Shown: positions 17,543-57,438, counted from the first letter of the whole stretch. The stretch: 62,879 nt of DNA, filler included, from 6 parts of 6 records of this genome joined end to end with filler, not necessarily neighbours in it, one strand, 5' to 3'. Notes: generated from the sequence alone by a model not told the origin. A program made the numbers and translations.

Positions 17543-20500
17543 CTACATCACGTATTGCATGCAAAGCCCATGGGCACACACGTTCGTGAACCTTACCGGC
17601 AAGTTTGAGCATTGGTGCTCACTCCTGCAAGTTAATACACAGTTCAAGCAGAAGGCGTCGATTGTTTCAGATGAGCTTACAGTTCCGTGGGCGCTACTAC
17701 CATCATTGGAAGCGGCCGCTACCACTGGGCCAGATGTATCCTCCGGTCCGACTGGCAGTGCTTCCATCGGGGCCTCGTCGTCCTCTTCATCGTCACTACA
17801 GCCAGTTGCGATTCGCTCTTGTTTGGCGATATCGGTGTCGGTGTTTTCGACTGGTGACAGAACCCGATATTCGTGCTGCGCATCAACACCATCGTACGCA
17901 TGCTTTTGCGACTTTTGAAGCTCATCGTACGCTAAGAACTTGCTCGATAGGGAGTTATCTGTGCTGCGGACAACAATTTGTCCTTCAAAAGCAATCAGCA
18001 CCAGAAGGGCAGATTTGGTGCTTGGGCTGTCGTACCACCATAATTTCTGCTCAACAATGAAACGTGCACCACCTAAGAACACTTACCCCCACACGGCAAC
18101 CTCACAAGGGACGCTCTGAACGGAAAATATGGTCGCTCTTTGCGCGAGAAGATACTGAGAGACACAAATGCCTGAACCTGGTGTACGATTCGAAGGCCAT
18201 ATCCTCAATGCTGCGTTGTGCAGCTGCAAATGGCGAAGCAATTTTGCATGCTACAAACCAACTACAAGTACCTTGAGTTGATCTTCTAACACTGTCTTAG
18301 GCGCGGGAAAAGCGTTTTTACCAAGCCGGACAATCGAATTGATCACGCTGACCCTACAGAAATTAAGAAAAGGCACGGGCCACAACACCCAAAAAGGGTG
18401 GAGTCACACATGCAAGGCAGCCGTTCAAGTGCACAAAATTGTTGAGGAAAAACGAGCCATTCTGCGCATTGCTCGTGCGTTGGCAGATGCACCACCCAGA
18501 CGGCGCAGTTGCTCGTGTCGAAAGGGTTCGACGCCTAGTGAACACGCACACCAACACAGGCACAGAGCGTGAAAAAGGTTCTCCCAGCCTCGAGCGGTGC
18601 GAAAACATGAACTTGAGGTACGCACAACGTAGAATGACCAGTTGCGAGTTGAACGGTGGTTTGAAGTGTGCGCCGTAGCATGACGGAAAAACGCCCGACT
18701 TCGCCGTGTCAGCTTCATGTATGAGTATCTACGATTGGGTGTTGCCACCCAAACAATCGAAACACAGAATTAACTTCAAAACAAGACGGGGGTCCTGCTC
18801 GTCGTGGAAAAAGCAACAACGAAGGCCCTCAACATAAACAAGTGGACGGTGAACGCACGAGGAGTAGTCAAAGGCATTTTTTGACACCAAACTACAGCCT
18901 CGCGATGATGGGTAAACGGCTAGGCTCTGCGTTTGATGAATATGCAGCTTTGATGTTGCATTCTTGAAGGTATTGCTGAGTCCTTTAAATGCCGACGAAG
19001 TCGGTGATACAGGCGAACTGCCGCCCGCAGCAGATGCATTGCTTTCTCCGTCTTCTCGCCCAGATCGATCAACAAAGGCCACTTTTGCCATGCTGCCGTT
19101 GAGCCGGGTACATGCCTCCATAACACCATCCGCACTGATGCGAGACATTTGGAGAGCCAAAAATCAAGCACTGAGATACAGGCTAAACCAACGTCGTGCG
19201 CGCACCAAATATGAGTGCGCGCACGCACCTTAGCGATTGATCTTGGCATCGTGTTGTGCTGGCTGCAGTGGCTCGATTTCCATCTGTGTTTGCAGACGCG
19301 ACGAATTCATCTCCAGCACGAGTGAATCCTCCCTCTGGTGCAAGGTCAAACCCTCGGAACTCACAATTGGTAAGCGAGGGTTCACCAGGAAAAGCGCTGC
19401 GAAAAAACGCGCCATGGCCAACTAATGCCAATGTCTGCAGCAACCACGACAACAAGTACGTGCAGTAAAGCAATCGTTATCACTCAGTTTTCCAACATCA
19501 TGCGGCTCTGAAGCGTTTCGTTGTTGGCGTTCTTGGAGTACACCTCGACAAATGCGTACCTGGCCTGGTTGAAAATGTGTTCTGATGAAGCGCTGAAATA
19601 AATGCGCGCGGAAGTCGATTCTCCAAAAAGGCTCCGAGGGGGACCACCTGGAAATACACGCGCAACACTTGAAATTTGCGAATGAGACATCGAGCTACGT
19701 GGAAATATTCGAAAACGTACCCGTCATGAAGCTTGCGAACCGGTGCTGTACACCCAATGTCGTCCCACACCTCGGCAGGGCTGCTACTGTCGCTGTCAGC
19801 GCGGCGAGTCCCGCCTCCTCCACCACCAATACCATCACCACCACCACCACTGCTATGGGCAGCAGCTTCTTCAAATTGGATATTGGTACCGAATTCAACT
19901 GGGCCCATCACGTGGTTGAAACCACGGAGCTGAGGAAACAGCTCATTCGGGAAGTGTGCTTGAAGCAAGGCATGCGGAGAGCCAGCATTTCCAACGAGCA
20001 TGGACGTGCCATGGAACTCTCGAAGTGCTGGAATTACATGCCAAGGGCACAGTGAGCCATCCTGTCGCCCAAAAATAAACAAGCTGGGTAAGAAGTGGTG
20101 GCACCTCAAGAGTGGAAAACGAAAGCTAAGCAGGCAAATTTCAGTTCACGAACGCTGCGTTGAGTACGTCCGTGCATAACAAGGGCTGCAGTTTCCAGAG
20201 TACGGGACAGTGGCGACACGAGTACGCGGTCAAAGTTCACTGCACGCAGCGCGGCACCAGCAACCAGGGCTTGCTCCACCCCAAGGCCGGTGAGGGACGC
20301 ATCTCGGTTGGCAAAACATCCAACACTGTTTCCTGCGTTGTGATTGCCCTCGCCGTGACGAATAAACACTATTCGCCAGCCATTCTACAACAAGCGCCGG
20401 AAAATTTTCAACGGAATGACAATCACGCAAACATCAGCATGATCAATGCGGGCATGCATGCACCCGGGTTCATTCACCGTCTACGTGGCAGGTACAGACC

Positions 20501-21356
20501 TTTGGAGCTGGTGTAGCGAGCCGCGCAAGTTCTGGAAGACCGGCTCCACCATGCCCGTTCACTCCGCCATGTCCATTGATTCCGACCAGATTGTCGACGA
20601 CGGTATGGAACTTCTTGCGTCGGCCCGCAGTTTCGTTTGTGGCAAGCTGGAACCCAGTAATGGCAAACTTAGTCAAGCCCATAAACATCGAGCCAAGGAC
20701 GGATCTGCCTTTGCTTTTCTGCACGGCTCCGGACTCATCGGCAGACTGCAACTGAGCCTTGGGTGTGCGTCCATTACGATGCATTGGTTTACGATTCGTT
20801 GGGGACCCCTCGGGGCTGTCTTGGCCTTGGTTCGCGCTCAGGTCTTGATTTTTAATCGTGGTGCGGTTCGATGCGTGTTGATCACGCCCAGTGCCATGAT
20901 CTCGATCGTCGTTGGCGTACCCGAACAATTCACTGAACTCCAAATCGAAATTTTTGTGCCACATTTTCGTGTCTACAATGCGGCAATGGTGCTGCCACGC
21001 CACGTCGTGCAGAGACACCAGCGCTTTGCCATACTTCTTGAACAGCTGCACCGTCAGCTCATGGAGCCGAATGGCGCTGCCCCCGTACTTCTTGCAAATG
21101 CCAGCCACTTTCTCTGCCGAGGTCTGCATGCCTACCGCATCATACAGGGCGGCCACTTTCTCTCGAAGGACTTCAATACGCTCGGCTGGAGCAAGACCCA
21201 TCAGGTAGTCCACGGACGGGAGTGGTACAACTTCTTTGGCAACAGGAATGCTTGCAGAAGACTCGGAGCTGGCTTCCTCCTGCGACCCGCCTTGCTGTTG
21301 TTGGGCCTCGCCCACGTTATCGTCGATAGTGGTTGTTGTTGTTGTTGTTGTTGTTG
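17543..21356 (-). CDS. Eukaryotic spliced gene, multidomain protein with a histidine-phosphatase (PGM-like) domain; 5'-partial, 3' end approximate
   Basis: Introns 20499-20385 and 20153-20062 (GT-AG, phase 0) join exons giving IVFIRHGEGNHN, DASLTGLGVEQA, VSPLSRTLETA and PALREF; a later exon gives LALVGHGAFFR...LTNCE. Further exon-like ORFs continue to about 17600. Confidence 0.65.
21332..21356 (+). repeat. (GTT)n microsatellite at contig edge (poly-Thr on the coding minus strand)
   Basis: gttgttgttgttgttgttgttgttg directly before the spacer. Confidence 0.9.
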
Positions 21357-21456: not shown

Positions 21457-22686
21457 ATGCGCGCCCAGCAATTCGCCGGTTTTCGCGTCAAACACGGTTT
21501 TGATCATGCCCTCGGGTTCGCCCAATGCAATTGCCTTGCCGTTACCGATAAACGGGAAGCGGCCGACTTTGATCTCGAAACCCAGCTCTTTGGCCTTGGC
21601 CTCGGTATAGCCGACGGATGCAATCTGCGGGTGGCAATAGGTACAGCCCGCGATGGATTCGGGTTTCACCGGATGCGCGTGTTTGCCCGCGATCAATTCG
21701 GCAACCATGACGCCCTCGTGAGACGCCTTATGCGCCAACCACGGGGCACCGGCGATGTCACCAATCGCATAAAGACCGTCAACGCCCGTGCGGCAATATT
21801 CATCGGTCACAACATGGGTGCGGTCGACTTTGACGCCCATTTCCTCAAGGCCCAGATCTTCGACGTTGCCGACGATGCCCACGGCAGAGATCACGGTGTC
21901 AAACTCTTGCTTCTCGACCTTGCCGCCCATTTCGATATGGGCCGTAACCTTGTCAGCCGCGCGATCCAGCTGTTTGACGACAGCCTTTTGCATGATCTTC
22001 ATGCCCTGCTTTTCAAACTGCTTTTTGGCGAATTTGCTGATCTCTTCATCTTCGACGGGTAGGATGCGGTCCATCACCTCGACGACGGTCGTGTCTGCGC
22101 CCAAGGTGTTGTAAAAGCTTGCGAATTCGATGCCAATCGCGCCCGATCCAATGACCAGCAGCTTTTTCGGCATGTGGGGTGGATCCAGCGCGTCTTTGTA
22201 CATCCAGACACGTTTTCCATCTGCCTCAAGGCCCGGCAGGTTGCGCGCCCGTGCGCCGGTGGCCAGCACGATGTTTTTGGCGGTCAGGTCTTCGCTGCCC
22301 TTGTCAGTTTTCACCGAAACCTTACCCTTACCGGCAAGTTTCGCGGTGCCCATGAACACGGTAATCTTGTTCTTTTTCATCAGATGGCCGATGCCGCCCG
22401 AAAGCTGCCCCGCAACCTTGCGCGACCGTTTGACGACAGCATCCAGATCATAGCCGATATTGTCTGCTTTCAGGCCGAATTCCTTGGCCCGGTGCATCAG
22501 GTGGAACACTTCGGATGACCGCAGCAGCGCCTTGGTCGGGATGCAGCCCCAATTCAGACAGATACCCCCCAAATGCTCGCGTTCGACAATGGCCACGGAC
22601 AGCCCCAGCTGCGCACCACGGATCGCGGCGACATAGCCGCCCGGCCCGGCACCGATCACGATCAGATCAAAGGATTTTTCAGCCAT
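21457..22686 (-). CDS. lpdA: Dihydrolipoyl dehydrogenase E3, 3'-truncated
   Basis: IGAGPGGYVAAIR, GGICLNWGCIPTK disulfide motif, LAHKASHEG; start MAEKSFD at 22686. Confidence 0.96.
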
Positions 22687-22713
22687 AGGGAAACCTCGCG
22701 GCATAGAAGAGAA

Positions 22714-46667: not shown

Positions 46668-48512
46668 CTAAGGTGTATCCTGATAGCGGTTTTGCAGCAT
46701 GCTCACGGGCAAGAAATCCTGTTCAAACTCTGATGCGGGCGCAGGTTTCGAAAACAGAAATCCTTGCAGCGCGTCACAGCCCGCCCGGCTCAGGCAGTCG
46801 GCCTGGGCGCGAGTCTCAATCCCCTCGGCCACCACGGTCATGTTCAGCGTCCGGCCCAGTTGAATCATGCTTTCAACGATGCCCAGCGCGGTTTCGTCGG
46901 TGTCGCAGTCAATGGTGAACGAGCGGTCGATTTTCAGTGTGTCCGGGTGGAACCGGCGCAGGTAGTTCATGCTTGAGTACCCGGTTCCAAAATCGTCTAT
47001 AGCGAGGCGTAATCCGGCGGCCCGGAGCTCGGAAAAGACGGCCTCCGCCCGGGCCGGGTCGGCCAGCATGGCGCTTTCCGTCAGCTCAAGTTCAATGGCC
47101 TGCGGAGGTAGATGATGCTCGTTGAGGATGGCCATCACCCGTGCCGGAAAATCCCTGGAAAGCAGTTGTGCTGCTGAGACATTAACGGCCAGGGAAAAGC
47201 CGCGGGGCAGTCTGTCGTTTTCATGCCATTGGGCCAGCTGGCGACAGGCATCCTGCAGAATCCAGTCGCCGACATCGATGATGTCTCCGGAGTCTTCGAG
47301 TTGCGGAATGAAATCATTCGGGGATACCAGACCATGGACCGGATGCCGCCACCGGAGCAACACCTCGGCTCCGGACAACTCCCGACGGCTGCAGCAATAC
47401 TTGGCCTGGTAATAGAGTTCGAACTGCTGGTTCTTGAGTGCCTTGCGAAGATCCATATCCCGCCGCAGGCGTTCCCGGGTTGCCTGGCAGGTGAGCTCTT
47501 CCTCGTAAAAAGTCATGGAACCCCGGCACCGGGTCTTGCTGCGGACCATGGCCAGTTCCGCCGCTTTCATCAACGAGCCCGGATCATCGCCGTCGGTGGG
47601 GTAGCGGGCTACTCCGAAAGACGCCGTTGTCACGATCTGCTCGCCGTCGACACTGATCGGCTGAGTCAGAGCTTGCTGGAGACCAATCAGGCGGTTGTGG
47701 GCCGAAGAGGATTCATGGCAGTCGGTTAGAATCAGCGCGAACTCATCACCGCCGACCCGCGCCACATAGCCACGAGTGCCAATGAACTCCTTGATACGGT
47801 GAGCGATTTTGCGCAGGTATTCGTCACCTACGCTGTGACCCAGCGTGTCATTGATTCGTCCGAAACGGTCGATATCAATAAAAACCGCGCACAGGTCGGT
47901 ACACGCAGAGTCGCTCTGAATGGAAAGCATCGCCGCCAGGGTATCCGAGTAGGCCGAGCGGTTGGCCAGGCCGGTGATGTGGTCCAGTTGCGAGTTTTCG
48001 TAGGCTTTGAGCTCAGCCAGCTTGCGCTCGGTAACATCGGAAGCAAAACCAATACGATGTGCGCCTACGCTGGAGGCATGGGGCTGGTTGATAAAGCGGG
48101 CATGAATGTAGCGCAGTTCGCCGCGGGTATTGCGAATGCGGTATTCGAATTCCTGAACCTTGCCCATCTCCAGATTGTGGAGGAACCGCCGCTCGACGAA
48201 CTCGCGGTCCTCCGGAACGACCATGTCGTACCAGGCTTTGGGGTTTTCATGCAGGGCTTCTCTGGGCAGGCCCCAGATGTCCTCGAATGATTTGCTGACA
48301 AACAGGCAGCGATCCTGCTGGTCAATGGAATGGCAAAAAAACACGGCAGGGATGAATTCAATCAGTTCTTTCAGGAAGATGGCGCCATCAATGTCGTGCA
48401 GACGATATCCGGTAAGGCTGGCGACCTGGCTGACCAGCTTCAGTTCGGCTTGCGAGCTCAAACCGGAGGGCTCTTCCTGAGTCAGTGTTCGTGCTTTCGA
48501 TGAATCCAACAT
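46668..48512 (-). CDS. PAS-GGDEF-EAL c-di-GMP enzyme
   Basis: PAS/PAC (VSKSFEDIWG...EYRI), DHITGLANR, RVGGDEF, AEVLLRW, DDFGTGYSS; likely start MLDSS at 48512. Confidence 0.93.
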   Translation of the reverse strand: MLDSSKARTLTQEEPSGLSSQAELKLVSQVASLTGYRLHDIDGAIFLKELIEFIPAVFFCHSIDQQDRCLFVSKSFEDIWGLPREALHENPKAWYDMVVPEDREFVERRFLHNLEMGKVQEFEYRIRNTRGELRYIHARFINQPHASSVGAHRIGFASDVTERKLAELKAYENSQLDHITGLANRSAYSDTLAAMLSIQSDSACTDLCAVFIDIDRFGRINDTLGHSVGDEYLRKIAHRIKEFIGTRGYVARVGGDEFALILTDCHESSSAHNRLIGLQQALTQPISVDGEQIVTTASFGVARYPTDGDDPGSLMKAAELAMVRSKTRCRGSMTFYEEELTCQATRERLRRDMDLRKALKNQQFELYYQAKYCCSRRELSGAEVLLRWRHPVHGLVSPNDFIPQLEDSGDIIDVGDWILQDACRQLAQWHENDRLPRGFSLAVNVSAAQLLSRDFPARVMAILNEHHLPPQAIELELTESAMLADPARAEAVFSELRAAGLRLAIDDFGTGYSSMNYLRRFHPDTLKIDRSFTIDCDTDETALGIVESMIQLGRTLNMTVVAEGIETRAQADCLSRAGCDALQGFLFSKPAPASEFEQDFLPVSMLQNRYQDTP

Positions 48513-48645
48513 GACCGGCTTCTCCGCTCGGTGACAATGATCGACACTGTCAGTCTGGCGGAGACCGGACAACAAAAAAATCGGGTAAATTCTGAACAGA
48601 CAGGAGGGGGTTCCCCAGATTTCTGTTTGGAAACCCTTAAGTAAT

Positions 48646-49293
48646 TCAGGTGGCGAGGTGAGTGCTGACCGCGAACCGGACCAGTTCGGTACTGTTGCTC
48701 AAGCCAAGCCGGTGCATCATCTGGCTGCGGTGGGACTCTACGGTTTTAATACTGACGCCGAGCTTCTCCGCAATGTCCCGGGTAGACAGTCCCTCGGCGA
48801 TGCCGGCCAGCACTTCTTTCTGGCGGCCGGTGAGTTGTTCTGACGGCGATACCTCACTGAGGGAACGAACCGCGAGGTCGATCAGATGTTTCGCCACGCC
48901 GGGGCTGAGAAACGGTTTTTTCTGGCAGGCATAGTCCAGCGCCAGCTTCAGCTCATGCTCGGCGGCGTCTTTCAGGATGTAGCCATCGGCACCATTACGC
49001 AGAGCGTTGATGACAAATTCGGGCGAGTCGTACATTGAGAGCATCAGCACGGGAAGCTGTTTGTTTTGTTCGCGGATTTTCTTGACTGCCTTCAGGCCAC
49101 AGAGTCCCGGCATGGAAACATCCATGACGATGGCGTCCGGCTGGCCGGAGCGCGCCAGCTCTACGGCGTCTGCACCACTTTCACCTTCACAGGCAACGTG
49201 GTAGCCGTCCAGGCTGTCAATCAATCCTTTGATTCCCGCTCTTACGAGTCTGTGGTCGTCGATCAGTGCGATTTTCTTCTGGTGGGACATCAA
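48646..49293 (-). CDS. NarL/LuxR-family response regulator 1
   Basis: IDDH, MDVSMP, LSMY, YILK, LTGRQKEVL...SIKTVESHR. Confidence 0.95.
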   Translation of the reverse strand: MMSHQKKIALIDDHRLVRAGIKGLIDSLDGYHVACEGESGADAVELARSGQPDAIVMDVSMPGLCGLKAVKKIREQNKQLPVLMLSMYDSPEFVINALRNGADGYILKDAAEHELKLALDYACQKKPFLSPGVAKHLIDLAVRSLSEVSPSEQLTGRQKEVLAGIAEGLSTRDIAEKLGVSIKTVESHRSQMMHRLGLSNSTELVRFAVSTHLAT

Positions 49294-49430
49294 AGGGTGC
49301 TTTCTCAGTCAGGGCAACGGTACTAAACAGCAGTACTCCGCTGTCGGAACTGGAATAAAGATATGGTTTCAGGCGCGACGATGCTATCGGGAAAACCCTG
49401 CGGGCGGTCTAGGGTATTGTCTTAGGGTGT

Positions 49431-50081
49431 TTACAGCTCGGTCAGGCCGTGCCGGATGGCGTAGCGGATGAGCCCGGCGATGTCCCGGATTTGCAGTCGC
49501 TCCATGATCTGTGCCCGGTGGGATTCCACGGTTTTTGCGCTCAGCCCCAGTTCCCAGGCAATCTCCTTGGTGGCTTTGCCATCGGCGATGTAACGGAGTA
49601 TCTCTTTCTGGCGTTCCGTCAGTGGAATTTCTTCGGCGGCTGGGGGCAGGCCCCCTCCGGCTAATGCAGCCCTGACCAGGTCACCCGATATCCGAGGGCT
49701 CAGGTATATCTGACCGGCCAACACTGCGCGCAGGGCCAGTTCCAGCTCCGTCTCTGCCGAGTCTTTCAGCAGGTATCCGTCGGCACCGGAGCGCAGGGCC
49801 TTGTTGACGTATTCCGAAGTGTCATGCATTGACAGAATGATAACCTTGGTGTCGCAGCCTCTGGATCGCATTTCACCGAGCGCATCAATACCTGACATGT
49901 CGGGCATGGAAATGTCGAGAACGCAGATATCCGGTTGCTGCTCGTGGGCCAGGGCCAGTGCCTCGCTGCCATCGGCCCCTTCCGCCACCACATGAAATCC
50001 GTCCATATTCTCGATCAGGTTTCTCAGACCCGCCCTGACCAGACGGTGGTCATCGATCAGCAGTACCGATATCGGTTCCAT
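49431..50081 (-). CDS. NarL/LuxR-family response regulator 2
   Basis: IDDH, LDISMP, LSMH, YLLK, LTERQKEIL...SAKTVESHR. Confidence 0.95.
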   Translation of the reverse strand: MEPISVLLIDDHRLVRAGLRNLIENMDGFHVVAEGADGSEALALAHEQQPDICVLDISMPDMSGIDALGEMRSRGCDTKVIILSMHDTSEYVNKALRSGADGYLLKDSAETELELALRAVLAGQIYLSPRISGDLVRAALAGGGLPPAAEEIPLTERQKEILRYIADGKATKEIAWELGLSAKTVESHRAQIMERLQIRDIAGLIRYAIRHGLTEL

Positions 50082-50096
50082 AAACAGACCTCATCC

Positions 50097-52154
50097 TTAG
50101 GCTGGTGACGTTACCCGGTGACCTCTCAGTGGCAGCACAGCCTCCACGCGAGTGCCATTGCCAGGACTGGAGCTTACTGTAACCATTCCGGCAACCAGGC
50201 TCGCCCGTTCGGTCATATTCGCGAGACCGAGACCGCCCCTGTTTTCTTCCGGGTCGAAACCTTTGCCATCATCAACAATGGTGATTCTGAGTTGCTCCGA
50301 GTTAGCTTCCAGGGTCACTGCAAGGTGATTCGGCTCGCCATGCCGTATGGCATTGGTCATGGCTTCCTGGAAGATCCGGAACGCGGTGAGACTTGGCTCA
50401 TCCGGAAGCTTGTCGATATCCACCCTATCATGGAATTCTCTCTGAATCCCGGTGGGGCCAATCATCCGGCGCATCTCCCAGGAAATGGCATGTTTGAGGC
50501 CAAGTTCATCCAGCTGTGGTGGGCGCAGCATCAGTGATCGATCCCGGACCTTGGCGACCAGCTCCTCAAGGACACCGGAAATCAGATCCGCCTCCGGGGG
50601 TTTGTCGAGATCGGCTGGCCATTTGTTATAAAGGGATCGCAGGTTTGTTTTGACCGCAATGAGCAATTGACCGATGTCGTCATGGAGTTCTCTCGATATC
50701 AGGGCCCTTTCCTGCTCCAGTACCCTCAGTGTCTTGCTGTTGAGCATCGACAGTTTCTGGTTGGCCTGGCGGAGCTGCTCGCGAAGCACGATCTCTTCGT
50801 CGATATCATGGATAACCAGTTGCGCATACTGGCGCTCGGCCAACTGCAGATGCGTGGAATTGATGTGTACCCGGAAAATGGAATGGTCCTGTCGTTTCAG
50901 CAGCACTTCCTGTTTGCGCTGATGATTCCCTTGTTCGCTAATGGTGTCCAACAGATCGGCCAGGCGCTGACGGTTCTCGGCGTCTGCGGCAATCGCGGCC
51001 AGTTTCTCGATGCGGTTTTCCTGTCCGGCCGGAACGCCGAGCATGCAGTAGAACGCCGGGTTGGCGAGATGGAGTTTGCCGCCCGGGCCGATGTCGTGCA
51101 GGACGACCGGCGCGGGCAGATTGATGAGGATCTTGCGTAGATCTGCTTCCTGTCTTTCCAGCGCACGGGTGTGTCGAATCTGGTCGGTCTCGTCGATGAC
51201 CGAGCCGGTCATCATCAGCGCTGCACCATTGCCACTCTGGGCGTGGAGGATCTCCCGATAATGCCGGACTTCTCCGTTTGGCAACTGGGCCCGAAAGCGT
51301 ATTTCCGCCTGGCCGGTTCGCAGACAGGTTTCTGCGGCTGCCCGGGCGTGAGGCCGGTCTTCGGGAACAATACGCTGGAAAGCGCTGTCCAGGGATTCTG
51401 TTTGTTGTTCCGGCGGAATCCCGAACAGGCGTGCCAGCCCGCGGGAGATCCGCATGTAGGTATCTCCGGCATGCCATTCCCAGGCGCCAAAACGACCGAG
51501 TTGTTCAGCATCCTCCAGGTGTTTCAGGGTTTTCTTCGCTTTACGAACCGCTTCCACCTGGGTGGTAATGTCGACACTGGTGACCAGGAGCATGGGGGTG
51601 TTATCGAAATCGACCGGGTGGGTCGTGATTTCGACCCAGAAGGGATTGCCGTCCCGGTCTTTATGGCACTTGGTGGCACTTTTGGGGCCGGGCGTGGGAT
51701 CAAGAAAGACCGAGAAGTGGTGGTCCAGACTGCCAGTGGCTTCGGAGTACTGCACGTCATCCACCCGCATGGAGAGAAACTCTTCGCGGGACCAGCCATA
51801 TCGTGCGACGGCCGCCTGGTTAACATCGAAAAAACGGCGGCTGGAAGGATCGATCAGGCACATGGGTTGAGGGTGTGCGCGAAAAAGCTGCTGGTATGCC
51901 TGCTGGGTGTGGGCATGGCGCATGCGCTCGCGATGGTGTTCAGACAGTAACGCACGCAGAAGCAGATACAGGGCGACGGTTGTAATGGAAATCAGAACGG
52001 CCTTGTCCAGCAAATGCAGCCCGTCCAATTGCGGCCCGGGCTCCAGTGCCAGCAGGACTTCGATCCATTCAAGCGCAATTCCGAGCAGGGCTGCCAGAAT
52101 GATGTAAAACAGGGCAAGGTGAAATGGGCCAAACCGACGAAGAAAGTTATACAT
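50097..52154 (-). CDS. Multi-PAS sensor histidine kinase (HisKA_3 class)
   Basis: Two N-terminal TM segments, PAS-like repeats, SRELHDDIGQ H-box, QEAMTNAIRH, DDGKGF, GLGLANM. Confidence 0.94.
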   Translation of the reverse strand: MYNFLRRFGPFHLALFYIILAALLGIALEWIEVLLALEPGPQLDGLHLLDKAVLISITTVALYLLLRALLSEHHRERMRHAHTQQAYQQLFRAHPQPMCLIDPSSRRFFDVNQAAVARYGWSREEFLSMRVDDVQYSEATGSLDHHFSVFLDPTPGPKSATKCHKDRDGNPFWVEITTHPVDFDNTPMLLVTSVDITTQVEAVRKAKKTLKHLEDAEQLGRFGAWEWHAGDTYMRISRGLARLFGIPPEQQTESLDSAFQRIVPEDRPHARAAAETCLRTGQAEIRFRAQLPNGEVRHYREILHAQSGNGAALMMTGSVIDETDQIRHTRALERQEADLRKILINLPAPVVLHDIGPGGKLHLANPAFYCMLGVPAGQENRIEKLAAIAADAENRQRLADLLDTISEQGNHQRKQEVLLKRQDHSIFRVHINSTHLQLAERQYAQLVIHDIDEEIVLREQLRQANQKLSMLNSKTLRVLEQERALISRELHDDIGQLLIAVKTNLRSLYNKWPADLDKPPEADLISGVLEELVAKVRDRSLMLRPPQLDELGLKHAISWEMRRMIGPTGIQREFHDRVDIDKLPDEPSLTAFRIFQEAMTNAIRHGEPNHLAVTLEANSEQLRITIVDDGKGFDPEENRGGLGLANMTERASLVAGMVTVSSSPGNGTRVEAVLPLRGHRVTSPA

Positions 52155-52348
52155 GAGCCTCTCTGTGATACTGAAACGTACCTAAGTGTAGATCATGTAG
52201 GCATATTTGTGTGTTCCTAATCGAAGTCAGAGCCGAGACAGGATGGCTGACGTAATCAACCATAGTTCAAACCCGATAAACCGGCGAATGTAACGATTTC
52301 GATTTTCCCGTGTCTGGGTGAGAAAGCGGCTACAAATTGGAGAAGAAT

Positions 52349-54559
52349 ATGGGTGCCGGAAAAATACTATTGGTCGCGCTGATTGTTGTAGCGATGGCTG
52401 TCTTCTGGTTGGCCGGTGGCGCAGAGTGGCTGACGCTCGACAACCTCAAGCAGAACCGGGACGTGCTCGACCAATGGATTGACGCGAATTGGGCATCGGC
52501 AATCGGGGGTTACGCGCTGAGCTATGTCATCGTGACCGCACTCTCGCTGCCCGGAGCCGCGGTCATGACCCTGGCCGGAGGCGCGTTCTTCGGCAACCTC
52601 TACGGTCTGCTTGCGGTGTCCCTGGCCTCGACCGCGGGGGCGTCTGTGGCCTTTCTCATGGCGCGTTACCTGTTTCGGGATACGCTCAGAGCAAAATATC
52701 GAGAGACCGTTGGCCGAATCGACCGAGGCATTGAAAAGGATGGGGCGTTCTATCTGGCGACGCTGCGTCTGGTTCCGGTGTTTCCCTTTTTTCTGATCAA
52801 TCTGGTTATGGGCCTCACGGCCATGAAGCTTCGCACCTATGCGCTGGTAAGCTGGATCGCCATGCTGCCTGGCACGTTTGTGTACGTAAACGCAGGCACT
52901 CAATTGGGTCAGATCGAGTCCACCGGTGACATTGTCTCGGTTGACCTGCTGCTGTCCTTTGCATTGTTGGGTCTCTTTCCCTTGATTGCCAAGTTTGTGG
53001 TGGGCTTTATCCGCCGCCGCAAAGTGTATGCCGGCTGGCAGAAACCCGCACATTTCGACTACAACCTGCTGGTCATTGGCGGAGGCTCTGCTGGTCTCGT
53101 CTCCGCTTACATTGCCGCTGCAGTGAAAGCTAAAGTGGCGCTGATTGAAAAAAACAAGATGGGCGGCGATTGCCTCAATACCGGCTGCGTGCCCTCCAAA
53201 GCCTTGATTCGCAGCGCCAGGGCCGCGGATACGCTGCGCCATGCCAATCGGTACGGGCTGGAATCGGTGCCGGTCAAAGGCTCGTTCAAAAACATCATGA
53301 ACCGCGTCAGGGAGGTGATTGCGAAAGTTGAACCCCACGATTCTCCCGAGCGTTACCGAAAACTGGGTGTGGACTGCATTGCTGGTGAAGCCAGCTTTGT
53401 GTCGCCCTGGGAACTGGAAGTAAGGCACAACGATGGCCGCACCGAGCGCCTCACCGCCCGCAGCATCGTCGTGGCCACTGGTGGCAAGCCGGCGGTACCT
53501 TCAATTCCTGGTCTGGAAGACATGGAGCCGCTGACCTCGGACAACCTGTGGCAACTGGAAGAACAGCCTGACCGTCTGCTGGTGCTCGGCGGTGGCCCGA
53601 TTGGCTCGGAACTGGCTCATGCGTTTGCGCGGCTGGGTAGTCAGGTGACGCAGGTGGAAATGGGTGAGCGCCTGCTGGCGAAAGAGGATGCCGATGTCTC
53701 TGAACTGGTGTTGAAACAGTTTCGGGCAGACGGCGTGGACGTTCGGTTGAAACATTCTGCCGCCGAGTTTCGTATAGAGGAAGGGGAGAAGGTTGCCTAC
53801 TGTAAGCATGAAGCTGAGCGGGTACGCATTCCTTTCGATCAGGTTCTCGTGGCGGTTGGCCGCGCAGCCAACACCGCCGGCCTGAATCTGGAGCGTATTG
53901 GTGTGGAAACCCTGCCAAACGGAACGGTACCGGTGGAAGAGGACATGAGCCTGAGGTACCCGAATGTGTTTGCCTGTGGCGATGTGGCCGGCCCGTACCA
54001 GTTCACTCACGCTGCGGCCCACCAGGCCTGGTACGCGGCCGTTAACGGACTGTTCGGGCAGTTCAGGCGCTTCAAGGTGGATTATCGGGTAATGCCCTGG
54101 GTCACCTTTACCTCGCCGGAAGTGGCCAGGGTTGGGTTGAGTGAGATTGAGGCTAAGGAAAAGGGTGTGGCCTACGAGGTCACTCGTTACGGCCTGGATG
54201 ACCTGGACCGGGCCATTGCCGAAAGCGAGGACAATGGCTTTATCAAGGTGCTGACAGCGCCGGGCAAAGACAAGATTCTTGGCGCTGTGGTGGTGGGCAC
54301 GCACGCCGGGGAAATCCTGGCCGAGTTCACCCTGGCCATGAAACACGGTCTGGGCCTGAACAAGATCCTGGGCACCATTCACCCCTACCCGACCTGGAAC
54401 GAGTCGGCCAAGTACGCGGCCGGTGAATGGAAGCGCTCTCATGCCCCTGAAGGCATTCTGAAGCTGCTGGAGAAGCTCCATGGCTGGCGCCGTGGGAAAA
54501 AGACGAATACACCAAGGAGCCACTATGCCCCTGACCAAAACCCGACCGGCCCGCGCTAA
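52349..54559 (+). CDS. VTT (TVP38/DedA) membrane domain fused to an FAD-dependent pyridine nucleotide-disulfide oxidoreductase
   Basis: ALSLPGAAVMTLAGG and LRLVPVFPFFLIN (VTT); IGGGSAG, GGDCLNTGCVPSK, GGGPIGSE, IHPYPTWNE; ATG 52349 follows GGAG. Confidence 0.9.
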   Translation: MGAGKILLVALIVVAMAVFWLAGGAEWLTLDNLKQNRDVLDQWIDANWASAIGGYALSYVIVTALSLPGAAVMTLAGGAFFGNLYGLLAVSLASTAGASVAFLMARYLFRDTLRAKYRETVGRIDRGIEKDGAFYLATLRLVPVFPFFLINLVMGLTAMKLRTYALVSWIAMLPGTFVYVNAGTQLGQIESTGDIVSVDLLLSFALLGLFPLIAKFVVGFIRRRKVYAGWQKPAHFDYNLLVIGGGSAGLVSAYIAAAVKAKVALIEKNKMGGDCLNTGCVPSKALIRSARAADTLRHANRYGLESVPVKGSFKNIMNRVREVIAKVEPHDSPERYRKLGVDCIAGEASFVSPWELEVRHNDGRTERLTARSIVVATGGKPAVPSIPGLEDMEPLTSDNLWQLEEQPDRLLVLGGGPIGSELAHAFARLGSQVTQVEMGERLLAKEDADVSELVLKQFRADGVDVRLKHSAAEFRIEEGEKVAYCKHEAERVRIPFDQVLVAVGRAANTAGLNLERIGVETLPNGTVPVEEDMSLRYPNVFACGDVAGPYQFTHAAAHQAWYAAVNGLFGQFRRFKVDYRVMPWVTFTSPEVARVGLSEIEAKEKGVAYEVTRYGLDDLDRAIAESEDNGFIKVLTAPGKDKILGAVVVGTHAGEILAEFTLAMKHGLGLNKILGTIHPYPTWNESAKYAAGEWKRSHAPEGILKLLEKLHGWRRGKKTNTPRSHYAPDQNPTGPR

Positions 54560-55496
54560 ACGCATTCCGGCCGTGGAAGTTCTGGAACTCCGGGCCCGTG
54601 ATAGCTGGACCCACACCCGCAACGGTGATCCCCGGGGATACATTGATGCCAACAGGCTAAAAGAGCTGTGGATACACACCGGTACCGCCTGCAACCTGGC
54701 CTGCCCTTTTTGCCTGGAGGGTTCCCATCCCGGTGATGGCCGCATCCCGGGCATGAAGCTCATTGACGTGAAACCGTTTATCCACGAAGCCATTGACATG
54801 GGCGTGGAGCAGTTTTCCTTCACCGGTGGTGAGCCCTTCGTGATCCGGGATTTCGTCAATATCCTGGACTACGCGAGCCAGTACCGCCCCTGCTTTGTGC
54901 TCACCAACGCCACTGAGCCGCTGCACAAGCGCCAGCACCAGGTGCTGCCCTTATTGGATAACCCCTATCCGATCCACTTCCGGGTGAGCCTGGATTTTCC
55001 CGACCGCGCCCGGCATGACAAGGACCGCGGCGAGGGCAGCTTTGATGAGGCCTTGCAGGGCATCCGCTGGCTGATCGAACAGGGTTTCAAGGTATCCATT
55101 GCCCGTCAGACCGATCCGAAGGAAATTCCGGCTGATATCGAAGCCGCGTTCCGTGGAATCTTCCGGGAATGGGGCATTCCGGAGGGCCTGGCGTTCACCG
55201 CGTTTCCGGACCTGGGCACGCCTGGTTCGGAAGATGGCAGCCCGGAGATTACCGAGACCTGCATGGAGAAGTATCCGACGAAGGAATCCCGGTCGCACTT
55301 TATGTGCACCTATACGCGGATGCTGGTGAAGAAGGGCGAACAGGTGCGGGTGTATGCCTGCACGCTGGTGGACGATGATCCGCAGTATGACCTTGGCGGC
55401 ACGCTGGCGGAGAGTATGGACGAGCGGATCATGCTGCGGCATCACCGGTGTTTCTCGTGCTACCGCTTTGGGGCGAGTTGTTCGGCGCCTGCGTAG
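54525..55496 (+). CDS. Radical SAM protein with Cys-rich C-terminus (ArsS-like)
   Basis: TACNLACPFC (CX3CX2C), FTGGEP, LTNA, FMC...VYAC, HHRCFSCYRFGASC; ATG 54525 follows AAGGAG. Confidence 0.88.
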   Translation: MPLTKTRPARAKRIPAVEVLELRARDSWTHTRNGDPRGYIDANRLKELWIHTGTACNLACPFCLEGSHPGDGRIPGMKLIDVKPFIHEAIDMGVEQFSFTGGEPFVIRDFVNILDYASQYRPCFVLTNATEPLHKRQHQVLPLLDNPYPIHFRVSLDFPDRARHDKDRGEGSFDEALQGIRWLIEQGFKVSIARQTDPKEIPADIEAAFRGIFREWGIPEGLAFTAFPDLGTPGSEDGSPEITETCMEKYPTKESRSHFMCTYTRMLVKKGEQVRVYACTLVDDDPQYDLGGTLAESMDERIMLRHHRCFSCYRFGASCSAPA

Positions 55497-55527
55497 ATCC
55501 GTTAAACCGTAAACCAGGAACAAGACA

Positions 55528-56931
55528 ATGAATTTTACCGAAGCATCCCTGTTCTGGGGATTCCTGCTGGTCTACGGCGTGGTTATGTATGCGCTGTCGC
55601 CCAAGAGCAAGAACGCAAACTCTTTTTATAAGGGCGCCGATGATCAGGGCAACCCGGTGGGTCAGTGGTCGCTGACGGCGAGTATTTTTATCAGCTGGAT
55701 CTTTGCCAAGTCGGTGACTAATGCGGCGAATCTGGGGGCGGCTTATGGTGTGGTGGGCGGTCTGGCTTATGCCAGTTACTGGCTGTCCATCCCGGTGGCA
55801 GGCTATGTGATTTACCTGATCCGGACCCAGACCGGGGCCCGGAGTCTGCAGGATTTTCTGACCTCGCGTTTCGGGCGGCTGGCCAGTCTGGCGTTTGCCG
55901 CGGCGGTTCTTATCCGGCTCTATAACGAGGTCTGGAGTAACACCGCGGTGGTGGGCGGTTACTTCGGGTTGCCCGGTGAGTGGGAGTATTACGCGGCGGC
56001 GATGCTGTTTACGGTGTTTACCCTGGCATACAGTCTGAAGGGCGGTCTCTGGTCCTCGATCTTCACCGATGTGATTCAGGCCTTCGTGTTTGTGTTCTTT
56101 GTGGGGGCGGTATTGTTCCTGATCATCCCTGCCAACGACACCAGCGCCCTGTTGACTAATGGTGAGTTCCGGCTCAATGCTGGTTTCGACTTGCTGTTGG
56201 TGGCTCTGTTGCAACTGTTCAGTTATCCATTCCACGATCCGGTGCTGACTGACCGGGGCTTTGTGAACAAGGAAAAGACCATGCTCAAGAGCTTTGTGGT
56301 CGCCGGATTGTTGGGCTTTGTGGCGGTGTTTATTTTCAGTCTGGTGGGCGTTCACGCCCGGCTTAACGGCATTGAGGCCATGGGTAACGCGCCCGCAGCA
56401 GTGGGCCAGTCCCTGGGGCTGGCGGCGTTGTTCTTCATGAGCGTGGTGATGATGACCTCAGCCGGTTCCACTCTCGACTCCACCTTTACCTCACTGGCCA
56501 AGTCCCTTGCTGTGGATCTGCCTCGCCTGGCGCGGCGTGCGTCGGACAAGCTGCCGAGCATGAGAGTGGGGGCCGTGGTGATGGTGATTTTTGCCTTCCT
56601 GGGTAACCTGCCCATGTTCGCCGGTACTGACATCCTCAAGGCGACGACCATCTCGGGCACTATGGTCATGGGGCTGGCGCCGGTTTTCCTGTTCTATGGT
56701 TTTACCCAGTGGTCGCCCTGGAGCTTCCATCTCAGCTTCTGGACCGGGCTTGGTCTTGGTGTTCTGTTGGCGGTGGGCCTCATCCCATCAAGCTGGGCGA
56801 TTGGTGACGGTGCCTATGCGATGTTGCTGGGCGTGAATGCTTACGGTTTCCTGATCTGTACGGTGTGTTTCTTCCTGCCCTTGATGTTAAAGCGTCTGGC
56901 TGGAAAGCCGGTGGCCGCCGAAGGTGCCTGA
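55528..56931 (+). CDS. Sodium:solute symporter (SSS) family transporter
   Basis: About 13 TM segments; SWIFAKSVTNAA, YSLKGGLWSSIFTDVIQ, MMTSAGSTLDS. Confidence 0.88.
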   Translation: MNFTEASLFWGFLLVYGVVMYALSPKSKNANSFYKGADDQGNPVGQWSLTASIFISWIFAKSVTNAANLGAAYGVVGGLAYASYWLSIPVAGYVIYLIRTQTGARSLQDFLTSRFGRLASLAFAAAVLIRLYNEVWSNTAVVGGYFGLPGEWEYYAAAMLFTVFTLAYSLKGGLWSSIFTDVIQAFVFVFFVGAVLFLIIPANDTSALLTNGEFRLNAGFDLLLVALLQLFSYPFHDPVLTDRGFVNKEKTMLKSFVVAGLLGFVAVFIFSLVGVHARLNGIEAMGNAPAAVGQSLGLAALFFMSVVMMTSAGSTLDSTFTSLAKSLAVDLPRLARRASDKLPSMRVGAVVMVIFAFLGNLPMFAGTDILKATTISGTMVMGLAPVFLFYGFTQWSPWSFHLSFWTGLGLGVLLAVGLIPSSWAIGDGAYAMLLGVNAYGFLICTVCFFLPLMLKRLAGKPVAAEGA

Positions 56932-56952
56932 CCAGAACGGAGGGGCCAGATC

Positions 56953-57438
56953 ATGGCTGATACAGAAGGGCGCAGCTGCCCGCTGACATACCGCTACACG
57001 CCAGAGTCTCTTTGCAGAGAGCCGGCGCAGGTTTCTGAGGACGTGCTGTACATCGTCGGTGGTCTTTACGGCAATGCCTTCGCCCTTGATGAAATCGAGG
57101 TCATGGTGCGCGCAGAGGAGCGCCATGGCCACCGGGTGAAGCTGGTCTTCAATGGCGATTTCAACTGGTTTAACGCTGACGACGCTTTGTTCCGGGAGAT
57201 CAACAGCCGGATCCTGGACCACACAGCAATTCTCGGCAACGTGGATTATGAGCTCTCGGTCCCCAATGCCGGCGCTGGCTGTGGCTGCGCTTACCCGGAG
57301 TATGTGGATCAGGGAGTGGTGGAGCGGTCCAATCAGATGATGGGGCGGCTGCAGGTGGTGGCGGACCGACACCCCGATATTCAAAAGAAACTCTCATTAT
57401 TGCCACGATACCGTTGCCTGATATTTGGAGGCCTAAAG
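56953..57438 (+). CDS. Atypical calcineurin-like metallophosphoesterase-fold protein, 3'-truncated
   Basis: YIVGGLYGN, VFNGDF and ILGNVD occupy the positions of the DxH, GD and GNH motifs; GCGCAYP; GGAGGG RBS. Confidence 0.6.

Follow-up and report, generated by a model that had tools for sequence, protein, structure and literature searches.

The four-gene operon described here, which lies on a Marinobacter-type contig, probably handles organic arsenic in a manner so far undescribed, because relatives of its radical SAM enzyme sit in clusters of the arsenic-methylation or arsenosugar type. More tentatively, with a probability of about 0.4, we suggest that it is a Marinobacter-lineage derivative of a widespread arsenosugar-type cluster, and that it would take up a preformed methylated arsenical, reduce it and adenosylate it in an ArsS-like manner.

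Layout of the operon and its contig

The window, i.e., the whole stretch of DNA analysed (62,879 nt), consists of six contigs separated by spacers of the form N44-TTAATTAATTAA-N44. ORF calling placed four co-directional genes, termed G1 to G4, at positions 52349-57438:

52155..52348, no strand: intergenic region upstream of G1, presumed to hold its promoter and ribosome-binding site (RBS)
52349-54559, + strand: G1, VTT-reductase fusion, 736 aa counted from the ATG
52559-52900, + strand: Pfam match (residues 71-184) within the N-terminal VTT/DedA-type membrane domain of G1 (residues ~1-230)
53060-54418, + strand: class I FAD/NAD(P)H disulfide reductase part of G1 (residues 238-690, from Pfam)
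54525-55496, + strand: G2, radical SAM enzyme, 323 aa
55528-56931, + strand: G3, predicted SSF-type transporter, 467 aa
56953-57438, + strand: G4, 5' 162 codons (162 aa), reading frame open at the contig end
57439..57538, no strand: artificial contig spacer N44-TTAATTAATTAA-N44, with another contig beyond

G1 and G2 share 35 nt, and gaps of 31 and 21 nt separate G2 from G3 and G3 from G4. This packing and the cut at the contig end reproduce what an earlier note, made from the DNA alone, had read. As the spacer begins at 57439, the truncation of G4 is a genuine contig end. The 'Marinobacter-like' host named in that note agrees with a nucleotide identity of 96.5% to Marinobacter nauticus DSM 50418 across 52523-57438. 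Shine-Dalgarno-like GGAG or AGGA sequences precede all four start codons by 6-10 nt; for G1 this is a GGAG 7-10 nt 5' of its ATG (52349), a TTG being present at 52337, and the G2 start at 54525 is backed by homologue N-termini and AGGAG. Within 52155..52348, promoter-like sites did not exceed shuffle expectation, an Rfam search matched no family, and blastn against the M. nauticus locus (L001) returned no match. The window holds no ArsM, ArsC, TIGR04282/3 or MTAP gene, and the operon holds no glycosidase, nucleosidase or C-As lyase gene.

Domains and conserved cysteines of the four proteins

Profile searches of the four proteins recovered the VTT, Radical_SAM and SSF domains named in the earlier note, but not TIGR04167, DUF3641 or Metallophos. 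The Cys motifs it had pointed out in three enzymes are all present, namely CLNTGC in G1, CX3CX2C plus six C-terminal cysteines in G2, and CGC in G4.

G1 is a VTT/DedA-type protein by its match to VTT_dom (PF09335; residues 71-184, 92.4 bits against a gathering cut-off of 33.9), and about five hydrophobic segments fall within residues 1-222. The remainder is a class I pyridine nucleotide-disulfide oxidoreductase, as judged by Pyr_redox_2 (206.5 bits), Pyr_redox_dim (100.7 bits) and the redox-active pair C275/C280 in CLNTGC. The best PDB match is MerA (5x1y, 256 bits), in which GGTCVNIGCVPSK aligns with GGDCLNTGCVPSK of G1 (CVNIGC vs CLNTGC). Residues 238-690 have in common with MerA, LpdA and glutathione reductase the redox CxxxxC and a complete Pyr_redox_2/dimerisation architecture, but G1 differs from class I reductases by its fusion to a VTT/DedA membrane domain and stays under every NCBIfam cut-off (NF004991, 497 against 620; LpdA, 390 against 409). 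An assignment as MerA was rejected (TIGR02053, 377.2 bits against 454.45). G1 also differs from MerA in lacking the NmerA domain and, since its last cysteine is residue 543 of 736 with none beyond, the C-terminal Cys pair that passes Hg(II) to the MerA active site.

G2 belongs to the radical SAM superfamily (PF04055, 63.7 bits against 29.5), solved members of which also match its AF2 model. It carries CX3CX2C (C56/60/63), the SAM motif GGEP and six conserved C-terminal cysteines ending in G-A-S-C. These nine cysteines are kept in 75-78 of 78 family members: CNLACPFC is invariant (78/78), and the cysteine of G-A-S-C is present in 75, the other three having gaps. The earlier note had regarded G2 as 'ArsS-like', a divergent paralogue, and an assignment to TIGR04167/DUF3641 did not survive. 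TIGR04167 reaches 40.2 bits against a cut-off of 300, stands eighth among the NCBIfam matches listed for G2 and covers only the N-terminal core (model positions 3-149 of 303). DUF3641, which forms the C-terminus in the Pfam architecture of ArsS, was not found in G2 by a Pfam scan (Radical_SAM only), and none of 26 distant full-length relatives matched TIGR04167 at E<=1e-25. The top NCBIfam match is NF049973 (Rv1681 family; 98 against a cut-off of 380), and all 30 Atlas neighbours of G2 carry only PF04055, with or without Fer4_12. The G2 family is large and has no curated model; its position outside the characterised ArsS family counts against the reading we prefer.

According to the available text of PMC13598754, ArsS adenosylates DMAs(III) to 5'-deoxy-5'-dimethylarsinoyladenosine; Synechocystis arsS is co-transcribed with arsM in the accessible part of 10.1101/2022.09.23.509062, and a table of PMC13188914 gives the Sec/Cys motif of TIGR04167 as GxxU. 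As far as these excerpts go, G2 may resemble the ArsS of Synechocystis in its CX3CX2C motif and its Cys-rich C-terminus ending in GxxC. The relatives of G2 adjoin ArsM, TIGR04282, TIGR04283, MTAP, VTT and MerA-like genes, and adenosylation of a trivalent arsenical would be its chemistry as well. It differs in belonging to another sequence family and in lacking an adjacent arsM, its own neighbours being the SSF transporter and the CGC protein.

G3 is predicted to be a divergent transporter of the sodium:solute symporter family, matching SSF (PF00474) with 41.2 bits against 22.8 over residues 43-200 only (160 of 467). TIGR00813 reaches 43.4 against a cut-off of 184, and the nearest Atlas clusters carry the name putative sodium:solute symporter. 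Members of this family usually take up a solute together with Na+.

The G4 fragment itself gave no Pfam or NCBIfam match. It is 96.9% identical to residues 1-162 of a 318-aa orthologue (L001, 10429-11385), which scores 17.6 bits against the Metallophos_2 cut-off of 27, and assignment to Metallophos (PF00149/PF12850) by HMM was rejected. The AF2 model of this full-length orthologue (pLDDT 88.1, pTM 0.89) best matches the Ap4A hydrolase SapH (3qfm; E 3.4e-12, TMt 0.73-0.76), followed by PH1004 and 3rqz, and predicts a calcineurin-like metallophosphoesterase fold for G4. The 'phosphoesterase' of the earlier note thus holds for the predicted fold, but not by HMM, and half of the metal site is degenerate. 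Metallophosphoesterases canonically carry DxH / GD / GNH[DE] / H / GH. The corresponding motifs of G4 are GGLYGN, NGDFNWF, GNVD, H167 and H207; in the Marinobacter proteins other residues stand in place of the Asp and His of DxH and the His of GNH, and fused and distant relatives show like replacements (GGPYSN, GNCE). Since DxH reads GG(L/P)Y and the His of GNH is Val or Cys, the site for one metal is absent, and so is the catalytic His. G4 therefore shares with SapH/PrpE Ap4A hydrolases the predicted fold and the GD, GN, H167 and H207 residues, but it has gained the CGC motif and further conserved cysteines and lies under the Pfam cut-off. The fragment contains C9, C21, C110-G-C112 and C155; C9, C110, C112, C155 and C209 are kept in at least 97% of 122 sequences.

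Neighbourhoods, fusions and tree of the G2 family

Gene neighbourhoods were compared in 80 loci, the best 80 of 594 relatives found, to which all counts out of 80 refer. The earlier note hinged on a co-occurrence with arsenosugar-associated genes, and at least one TIGR04283-, TIGR04282-, ArsM-, PNP- or ArsC-like gene is present in 49 of the 80, although this count, like the following ones, inflates the number of independent events because the loci are phylogenetically related. Individually, a TIGR04283-like and a DUF2064/TIGR04282-like gene occur in 34 loci each, an ArsM-like gene no more than 8 kb away in 22, a PNP/MTA phosphorylase-like gene in 16 and an LMWPc/ArsC-like gene in five. A VTT and/or MerA-like reductase gene lies upstream, downstream or convergent in 43 loci (reductase 41, VTT 36), and 16 loci have none of the partners, eight of these holding <12 kb. 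Together with the fusions described below, the counts of 43, 34 and 34 bear out, for the G2 family, the association drawn in the earlier note of VTT proteins and MerA/LpdA-like flavoproteins with Cys-rich radical SAM enzymes and with TIGR04282/TIGR04283.

Most neighbour calls are tblastn matches and not HMM matches passing a cut-off: ArsM-like examples score 171-189 against 263 (NF008823), ArsC-like ones 122-144 against 174, and several DUF2064 examples ~100 against 134. TIGR04283 passes in both examples tested (194.1 and 199.9 against 182; L023, L049), as does an MTAP example (TIGR01694, 276.6 against 274.85), and one of three TIGR04282 examples passes; the 'arsenosugar' names of TIGR04282/3 are themselves based on association. 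The ArsM-like neighbour aligns with solved ArsM structures, including the Cys-bearing stretches, at E 1e-88 to 1e-92 (best 2.7e-92). No other ORF of at least 200 aa with both CX3CX2C and GG[ED]P was found in the 80 loci, and the G2-family enzyme is therefore the sole radical SAM candidate in these clusters.

Fusion partners were surveyed in 13 long representatives of the family and comprise ArsM-like (four), Metallophos_2 (three), Pyr_redox (two), DUF2064 (one) and HD_3 (one) domains. Two representatives had no detected partner, one of which (P0248) has a G4-like domain according to a purpose-built HMM (119.7 bits). In P0153, a TIGR04282 domain (163.6 against 134) is fused to the radical SAM relative. 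For a sulfate-reducing bacterium, Yang et al. reportedly described an 'ArsSM fusion protein' in 2024 (Environ Sci Technol 58:19266). Judged from the title of that work, P0122, P0123 and P0133, which join a G2-family enzyme to an ArsM-like domain, resemble ArsSM, and several G2-related loci belong to Desulfovibrionaceae MAGs; again going by the title, ArsSM differs in concerning methylation in an anaerobe and not the Marinobacter four-gene set.

The order VTT-reductase, radical SAM, SSF and G4, whose conservation elsewhere mattered to the earlier note, recurs in eight Marinobacter-type loci, and radical SAM-SSF-G4 also in two distant lineages. In a tree of 81 sequences the clades among which the Marinobacter clade (16 rows, SH-aLRT 99) nests have arsenic-type neighbours, and so does the outgroup clade. 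Within the Marinobacter clade such neighbours are absent beside the enzyme, and the SSF symporter and the CGC protein are present. The arsM, TIGR04282/04283 and phosphorylase genes that the earlier note suggested looking for in related Marinobacter genomes were not found beside the enzyme; among the eight full loci, ArsM-like and ArsC-like genes occur only in L009, 7 kb away.

An SSF gene lies directly 3' of the radical SAM gene in 11 of the 80 loci. Putative uptake transporters adjoin the G2-family enzyme in five lineages: SSF transporters in Marinobacter, L033 and L053 (the homologues of the latter two without a Pfam match at E<=1e-5), and a phosphonate-type binding protein in place of SSF in two sister contexts, L013 and L080. 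No ArsM-like gene was found within 8 kb in 12 of 13 uptake-transporter loci.

The PNP/MTAP gene is directly 3' of the radical SAM gene in most of its 16 loci (best 80 of 594). This resembles hopanoid side-chain synthesis, in which radical SAM adenosyl transfer by HpnH is followed by adenine removal by the PNP-family enzyme HpnG. HpnH is only among the weak NCBIfam matches of G2 (33 against 225), hopanoid genes are absent, and the Marinobacter operon lacks a phosphorylase.

A possible route and its alternatives

In its full version, the arsenosugar-type cluster brings together an ArsM-type methyltransferase, an MTA phosphorylase, TIGR04282/TIGR04283 transferases and the radical SAM enzyme, often along with a MerA-like reductase and a VTT protein. 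In the Marinobacter operon the SSF symporter and the CGC protein stand beside the enzyme in place of ArsM, the phosphorylase and the transferases. G3 would then import a preformed methylated arsenical, e.g., dimethylarsinate released by phytoplankton. Using NAD(P)H and the CLNTGC disulfide, the membrane-anchored G1 may generate or maintain the trivalent state of this arsenical, either directly or by way of a thiol; we know of no class I disulfide reductase with demonstrated activity on arsenicals, which counts against this route. G2 would cleave SAM reductively and transfer the 5'-deoxyadenosyl group to the trivalent arsenical bound by its C-terminal cysteines. Finally G4, with a predicted nucleotide-hydrolase fold in which half of the metal site is gone and a CGC motif has been acquired, might bind or process the arsenical or adenosyl-arsenical.

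The same gene context would suit a detoxification, in which the highly toxic trivalent MAs(III) or DMAs(III) from neighbouring microbes become a pentavalent adenosyl-arsenical that is harmless, with G1 shielding or recycling thiols and the product being removed by G3 and G4; we consider this unlikely. It is consistent with the ArsS reaction, which the available text of PMC13598754 describes as redox-neutral with a pentavalent product. Eight Marinobacter-type loci and L030 have, upstream and in divergent orientation, an ECF sigma/anti-sigma pair of the sort common in stress regulons (ECF-like matches in 12 and anti-sigma-like matches in nine of the 80 loci), but the window lacks this pair and has a two-component system in its place. 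The uptake role typical of SSF transporters, and the phosphonate-type binding proteins of L013 and L080, which are uptake components, also argue against detoxification.

These binding proteins would suit another element handled by the same chemistry, with Se, Te or Sb species or reduced P (phosphite/phosphinate) being adenosylated and the reductase and transporter serving that element, which we regard as rather unlikely. The enzyme is partnered by two phosphohydrolase folds (G4 and HD_3), the methyltransferase matches include ArsM-related models named selenoproteins, and DedA proteins and MerA-like reductases have been linked to selenite and tellurite handling. Against this stand the match of the methyltransferase neighbour to solved ArsM structures, the ArsC-like genes in five of the 80 loci, and the TIGR04282-like and TIGR04283 examples that pass their cut-offs (1/3 and 2/2).

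The earlier note had proposed that the symporter imports algal arsenosugars or As/Se/S nucleosides, which the operon reductively remodels or salvages. Marinobacter is often associated with algae, the SSF family includes sugar transporters, and an operon without ArsM needs an external arsenical. This salvage is improbable all the same: the eight full Marinobacter loci lack a glycosidase, nucleosidase, phosphorylase or C-As lyase, radical SAM enzymes that transfer adenosyl build and do not degrade, and the phosphonate-type protein replacing SSF in the two sister contexts would be a better fit for a methylated oxyanion of small size than for a sugar.

Least probable of all is a function unrelated to metalloids, with G1 giving electrons or acting on membrane lipids by means of the VTT/DedA part, G2 modifying a peptide, lipid or cofactor, and the arsenic-type neighbours in other taxa reflecting a different, paralogous function: the nearest enzymes to G2 in sequence and fold are generic twitch/SPASM-type ones (SkfB, BlsE, SuiB and MoaA, the best PDB folds for an AF2 model with pLDDT 85.3), the upstream partner in L033 is a different, FNR-like flavin reductase resembling an electron donor, and Pseudohongiella loci within the Marinobacter-containing clade have none of the partners, but no precursor-peptide or lipid-synthesis genes were found at the loci, one family is fused to G4-like, reductase, ArsM and TIGR04282 domains, and G2 is 51-60% identical to ArsM/MTAP-linked members, with which it has all nine conserved cysteines in common.

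Layout of the operon and its surroundings

The six contigs of the window are joined by artificial N44-TTAATTAATTAA-N44 spacers at 14586, 21357, 31486, 45908 and 57439. The operon contig (46008-57438) carries the following genes:

46668-52154, minus strand: PAS/HisKA_3 histidine kinase, two LuxR-type response regulators and a PAS-GGDEF-EAL protein, divergent, upstream of the operon
52349-54559, plus strand: G1, VTT-disulfide reductase, ORF of 736 aa
54525-55496, plus strand: G2, radical SAM enzyme, ORF of 323 aa
55528-56931, plus strand: G3, SSF transporter, ORF of 467 aa
56953-57438, plus strand: G4, protein of predicted metallophosphoesterase fold, ORF of 162 codons, open at the contig end

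The ORF coordinates bear out the tight co-directional packing described in an earlier note on this DNA, with a 35-nt overlap followed by gaps of 31 and 21 nt, and a GGAG/AGGA box lies 6-10 nt 5' of each of the four starts. Promoter- and terminator-like sites did not rise above the expectation from shuffling, and no Rfam families were found on the operon contig. By blastn, 52523-57438 is 96.5% identical to the locus of Marinobacter nauticus DSM 50418 (L001), with no match to that locus 5' of 52523. A mosaic junction (52155-52720) lies inside G1, the first ~125 residues of which are closer to other Marinobacter alleles (75% against 98% identity), which suggests, as judged from the sequence, that the operon has recombined at its 5' end.

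The divergent kinase, LuxR-type regulators and GGDEF/EAL protein are not conserved in related loci and were rejected as parts of the system. Their place is taken in 8 related Marinobacter loci by an ECF sigma factor and a small anti-sigma factor (NF052368, 52.9 against a cut-off of 50); given these different upstream genes, regulation of the operon may differ in the window's strain. Downstream, L001 (11535-15008) encodes an ectA-type acetyltransferase, a class III aminotransferase and an aspartokinase with ACT domains, and ectC is absent from between these genes in Marinobacter. The ectA copy tested, that of the Marinobacter-like MAG L005 (4432-4965), scored 212 against a cut-off of 120.6 for TIGR02406. 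Because of a 150-nt gap and conservation only as local Marinobacter synteny, we judged these genes to be a separate ectoine-type unit. Between the SSF gene and ectA, L005 holds only a 77-residue remnant of G4 (4024-4257), which may be dispensable or decaying there.

Elsewhere in the window, G+C rises from 0.48-0.51 over the first ~20 kb to 0.54-0.65 beyond about 22 kb, and a Pfam scan of the ORFs at 14885-21354 gave no matches at E<=1e-12. Another class I disulfide reductase (21457-22704, minus strand), truncated by a contig end and 30% identical to the reductase domain of G1, looks like an ordinary LpdA-type paralogue.

The four proteins and their fused relatives

G1 has the two-part architecture that the earlier note had read from it: a VTT/DedA domain (PF09335, 92.4 bits, residues 71-184) within the hydrophobic N-terminal 230 residues, followed by a complete class I flavoprotein disulfide reductase (Pyr_redox_2, 206.5 bits; Pyr_redox_dim, 100.7 bits). 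Its best solved relative is MerA (5x1y, 256 bits), with whose redox-active motif the CLNTGC of G1 aligns, ahead of LpdA structures at about 225 bits. However, the C-terminal Cys pair of MerA is missing, since the last cysteine of G1 does not lie beyond residue 543, and no NCBIfam cut-off was reached (NF004991, 497<620; LpdA, 390<409; MerA, 377<454). G3 is an SSF transporter of divergent sequence (PF00474, 41.2 against 22.8, only 160 residues covered).

The G4 fragment gave no HMM hit in Pfam or NCBIfam, and its full-length orthologue in L001 (10429-11385, 318 aa) scored 17.6 bits for Metallophos_2 against a cut-off of 27. The predicted fold of this orthologue is nevertheless that of a metallophosphoesterase (pLDDT 88.1), and SapH, an Ap4A hydrolase, is the nearest structure (E 3.4e-12, TMt 0.73-0.76). 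The label phosphoesterase given to G4 earlier therefore describes its predicted fold, but not an intact metal site: DxH has become GGLYGN and GNH has become GNVD, whereas GD, H167 and H207 are retained. C9, C110-G-C112, C155 and C209 are kept in at least 97% of 122 sequences.

PF04055 (63.7 bits) places G2 among the radical SAM enzymes, with the Rv1681 family as best curated match (98 bits against a cut-off of 380). Its earlier description as a divergent ArsS paralogue did not hold: the ArsS model TIGR04167 scored 40.2 against 300, over the N-terminal core only, DUF3641 was not found, and apart from generic radical SAM features G2 showed no clear mark of TIGR04167 membership. G2 is thus not a member of the ArsS family and at most works like ArsS. 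Its AF2 model (pLDDT 85.3) matched only generic radical SAM/twitch enzymes (SkfB, BlsE, SuiB, MoaA) at a TM of about 0.55, and sequence matches in the PDB were weak (SkfB, E 6e-6). With NCBIfam scores far below cut-off and only generic fold matches, we rejected an assignment as ArsS, MoaA, HpnH or RiPP maturase. The family comprises 4735 cluster representatives at E<=0.001 and 75 at E<=1e-30, named in the sources only 'radical SAM protein', 'MoaA' or 'AslB', and none of 26 distant full-length members reached TIGR04167 at E<=1e-25. Nine cysteines, namely a CX3CX2C triad and six C-terminal cysteines ending in G-A-S-C, are kept in 75-78 of 78 members. Atlas searches with G2 and G3 returned only their own kind.

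Among 13 long representatives of this family screened for fused domains, four carry an ArsM-like domain (P0122, P0123, P0133, P0126), three Metallophos_2 (P0169, P0177, P0241), two Pyr_redox (P0175, P0213), one HD_3 (P0148) and one (P0153) a TIGR04282 domain scoring above its cut-off (163.6 against 134). The remaining two have no Pfam partner domain; the N-terminal domain of one of them, P0248, is G4-like by an HMM trained without it (119.7 bits). G4 also matched the N-terminal domain of P0177 (E 7e-5, 23% over 215 residues), with which it shares the patterns GG-Y-N, GD, GN-x-E and CGC. Pairwise BLASTP against P0169 was not significant (E 0.85), and the link of G4 to the fused domains thus rests on the P0177 match and the profiles. 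Judging from these fusions, three of the four operon proteins (the SSF transporter being the exception) are matched somewhere by a counterpart fused to the family of G2, and ArsM and TIGR04282 are also physically joined to it.

Gene neighbourhoods and the Marinobacter clade

We screened the best 80 of 594 related genomic loci over 8 kb on each side of the radical SAM gene. Most of the neighbour counts are tblastn matches rather than HMM hits passing a cut-off, and as the loci are phylogenetically related, they represent non-independent events.

Table. Neighbours of the radical SAM gene in 80 related loci (tblastn).
MerA-like reductase: 41/80
VTT: 36/80
TIGR04283-like: 34/80
DUF2064/TIGR04282-like: 34/80
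ArsM-like: 22/80
PNP/MTAP-like: 16/80
ECF sigma: 12/80
SSF: 11/80
G4: 9/80
DUF547: 9/80
ArsC-like LMWPc: 5/80

At least one neighbour of arsenic-pathway type is present in 49 of the 80 loci, in line with the co-occurrence of VTT, reductase and radical SAM genes with arsenosugar-type genes described in the earlier note, and an arsenic-type or VTT/reductase neighbour in 62. None of the partners was found in 16 loci, 8 of which span <12 kb. In spot checks, TIGR04283 (194.1 and 199.9 against 182) and MTAP (276.6 against 274.85) passed their cut-offs; ArsC-like neighbours (122-144 against 174.3) and ArsM-like proteins (171-189 against 263 for NF008823) fell below theirs. However, one of these ArsM-like proteins, that of L045, matched ArsM enzymes of solved structure (E 2.7e-92), and its stretches bearing Cys aligned with theirs. 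No other radical SAM candidates occurred in the 80 loci. The reductase gene lies upstream of, downstream of or convergent to the radical SAM gene, which argues for linkage retained through rearrangements.

An ABC ATPase was rejected as a partner: its matches in 10 loci are generic (28-34% identity, except in two related Nitrosomonas loci), and it is paired with a phosphonate-type binding protein only in L013. A DUF547 protein adjoins radical SAM, reductase or DUF2064 genes (e.g. L008 7138-7977, L045 5265-6215; the L039 example scored 76 bits).

In a quick IQ-TREE phylogeny of 81 sequences, the window and L001 fall within a 16-row clade (SH-aLRT 99) that also includes Halomonas, Haliea and Pseudohongiella loci. 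This Marinobacter clade lies nested between clades in whose loci ArsM, TIGR04282/3 and MTAP occur, as they do in the outgroup clade, whereas such neighbours are mostly gone from the Marinobacter clade itself. Exceptions are L013 and L042, which kept a transferase, and L009, with ArsM-like and ArsC-like genes 7 kb upstream. Of the relatives listed for this ArsM-like protein of L009 (120, about a quarter of them carrying names), some are from Marinobacter but none is named nauticus. A radical SAM gene 70% identical to that of the window, grouping with Pseudohongiella, lies without partner genes in L014, a record titled Klebsiella pneumoniae MAG; this contig is probably mis-binned.

The four-gene set is syntenic elsewhere, as eight loci share the full order VTT-reductase, radical SAM, SSF, G4 (L001-L004, L006, L008, L009, L011) and two distant lineages the radical SAM-SSF-G4 trio. 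These are a Cardiobacteriales MAG (L053) and a Geopsychrobacteraceae MAG (L033), where the last gene is G4-like with a profile comparison probability of 100%. The order in L033 (6720-11188) is TetR regulator, FNR-like flavin reductase (BenC-like, 91.6 bits), radical SAM, SSF and G4-like; with a reductase of another kind in this place, the reductases may serve to supply the radical SAM cluster with electrons. In Roseococcus (L080), which carries a G4-like gene too, and in Halomonas (L013), the place of the SSF transporter is taken by a phosphonate-type periplasmic binding protein (189.7 and 215.2 bits). Of the 13 loci with such uptake components, 12 have no ArsM-like gene in the 8 kb on either side; as the 13 loci stand for about five independent lineages, this pattern is suggestive only.

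A candidate route for methylated arsenicals

According to published work, ArsS adenosylates the DMAs(III) made by ArsM (PMC13598754; 10.1101/2022.09.23.509062). The family of G2 holds the position of ArsS in clusters otherwise resembling a complete arsenosugar route, which would comprise methylation, adenosylation, adenine removal and glycosyl transfer, and for this reason ArsS-like chemistry is the probable function of the family. A function unrelated to metalloids seems the least probable of the alternatives.

In the Marinobacter operon, the loss of ArsM together with the gain of uptake-type transporters points to a preformed external substrate. We favour, at roughly 40%, a chain of methylated arsenical uptake, reduction, adenosylation and handling by G4, each of these roles being putative. 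Methylarsonate and dimethylarsinate are pentavalent in oxic seawater, and the radical SAM step needs a trivalent arsenical, which would give the membrane-anchored disulfide reductase G1 a natural role in this conversion. Detoxification of trivalent methylarsenicals, which would share these arsenic-type genes, appears unlikely beside the uptake-type transporters.

Methylarsonate and dimethylarsinate also resemble methylphosphonate and phosphinates, and owing to this resemblance and to the phosphonate-type binding proteins in sister contexts, the imported substrate would be a small methylated arsenic oxyanion rather than a sugar. The same chemistry acting on Se, Te, Sb or reduced phosphorus is improbable, and the arsenosugar import and salvage proposed in the earlier note marginally more so. 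On the favoured arsenical route, G4 may bind or process an arsenical or an adenosine-5'-arsinoyl compound, the latter a mimic of a 5'-nucleotide. A nucleotide pyrophosphatase fold that was kept while half of the metal site was lost and a CGC gained fits such a role.

More tentatively, and with rather less confidence than for the chain itself, the family of G2 may be a second, independent radical SAM family forming adenosyl-arsenicals, widespread, invisible to the ArsS model, mostly annotated 'radical SAM protein' or 'MoaA', and spread over marine heterotrophs, nitrifiers, methylotrophs, sulfate reducers and planctomycetes, with the Marinobacter branch as a scavenging route. Algal dimethylarsinate would then be taken up, reduced by the membrane-anchored flavoprotein, a methylarsenate reductase new to science, and adenosylated, and the cysteine-bearing pseudo-phosphoesterase would handle the arsenical or adenosyl-arsenical. 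If so, arsenosugar-type chemistry would extend beyond cyanobacteria and algae.

Arsenic in marine food webs occurs mainly as arsenosugars and compounds derived from them. To our knowledge, the only characterised arsenosugar biosynthetic genes are arsM and arsS, both from a cyanobacterium, and we know of no genes for the later steps or for any methylated-arsenate reductase. The operon and its relatives provide candidates for several such parts, namely an ArsS-like enzyme from another family, a dedicated reductase bound to the membrane, systems for uptake and a new protein that bears cysteines on a phosphoesterase fold. Should this be confirmed, surveys of arsenic-cycling genes based on the ArsS model would miss a large share of the capacity, and algae-associated heterotrophic bacteria would gain a part in the turnover of organoarsenicals.

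Full-text literature searches returned no published description of the radical SAM family of G2 or of the four-gene set. An 'ArsSM fusion protein' of a sulfate reducer has reportedly been published and, judged by its title, may already touch the radical SAM-ArsM fusion type. Finally, one study mentions a small island in which a 'moaA' adjoins a TIGR04282 gene (PMC8801600); this 'moaA' may be another unrecognised member of the family.
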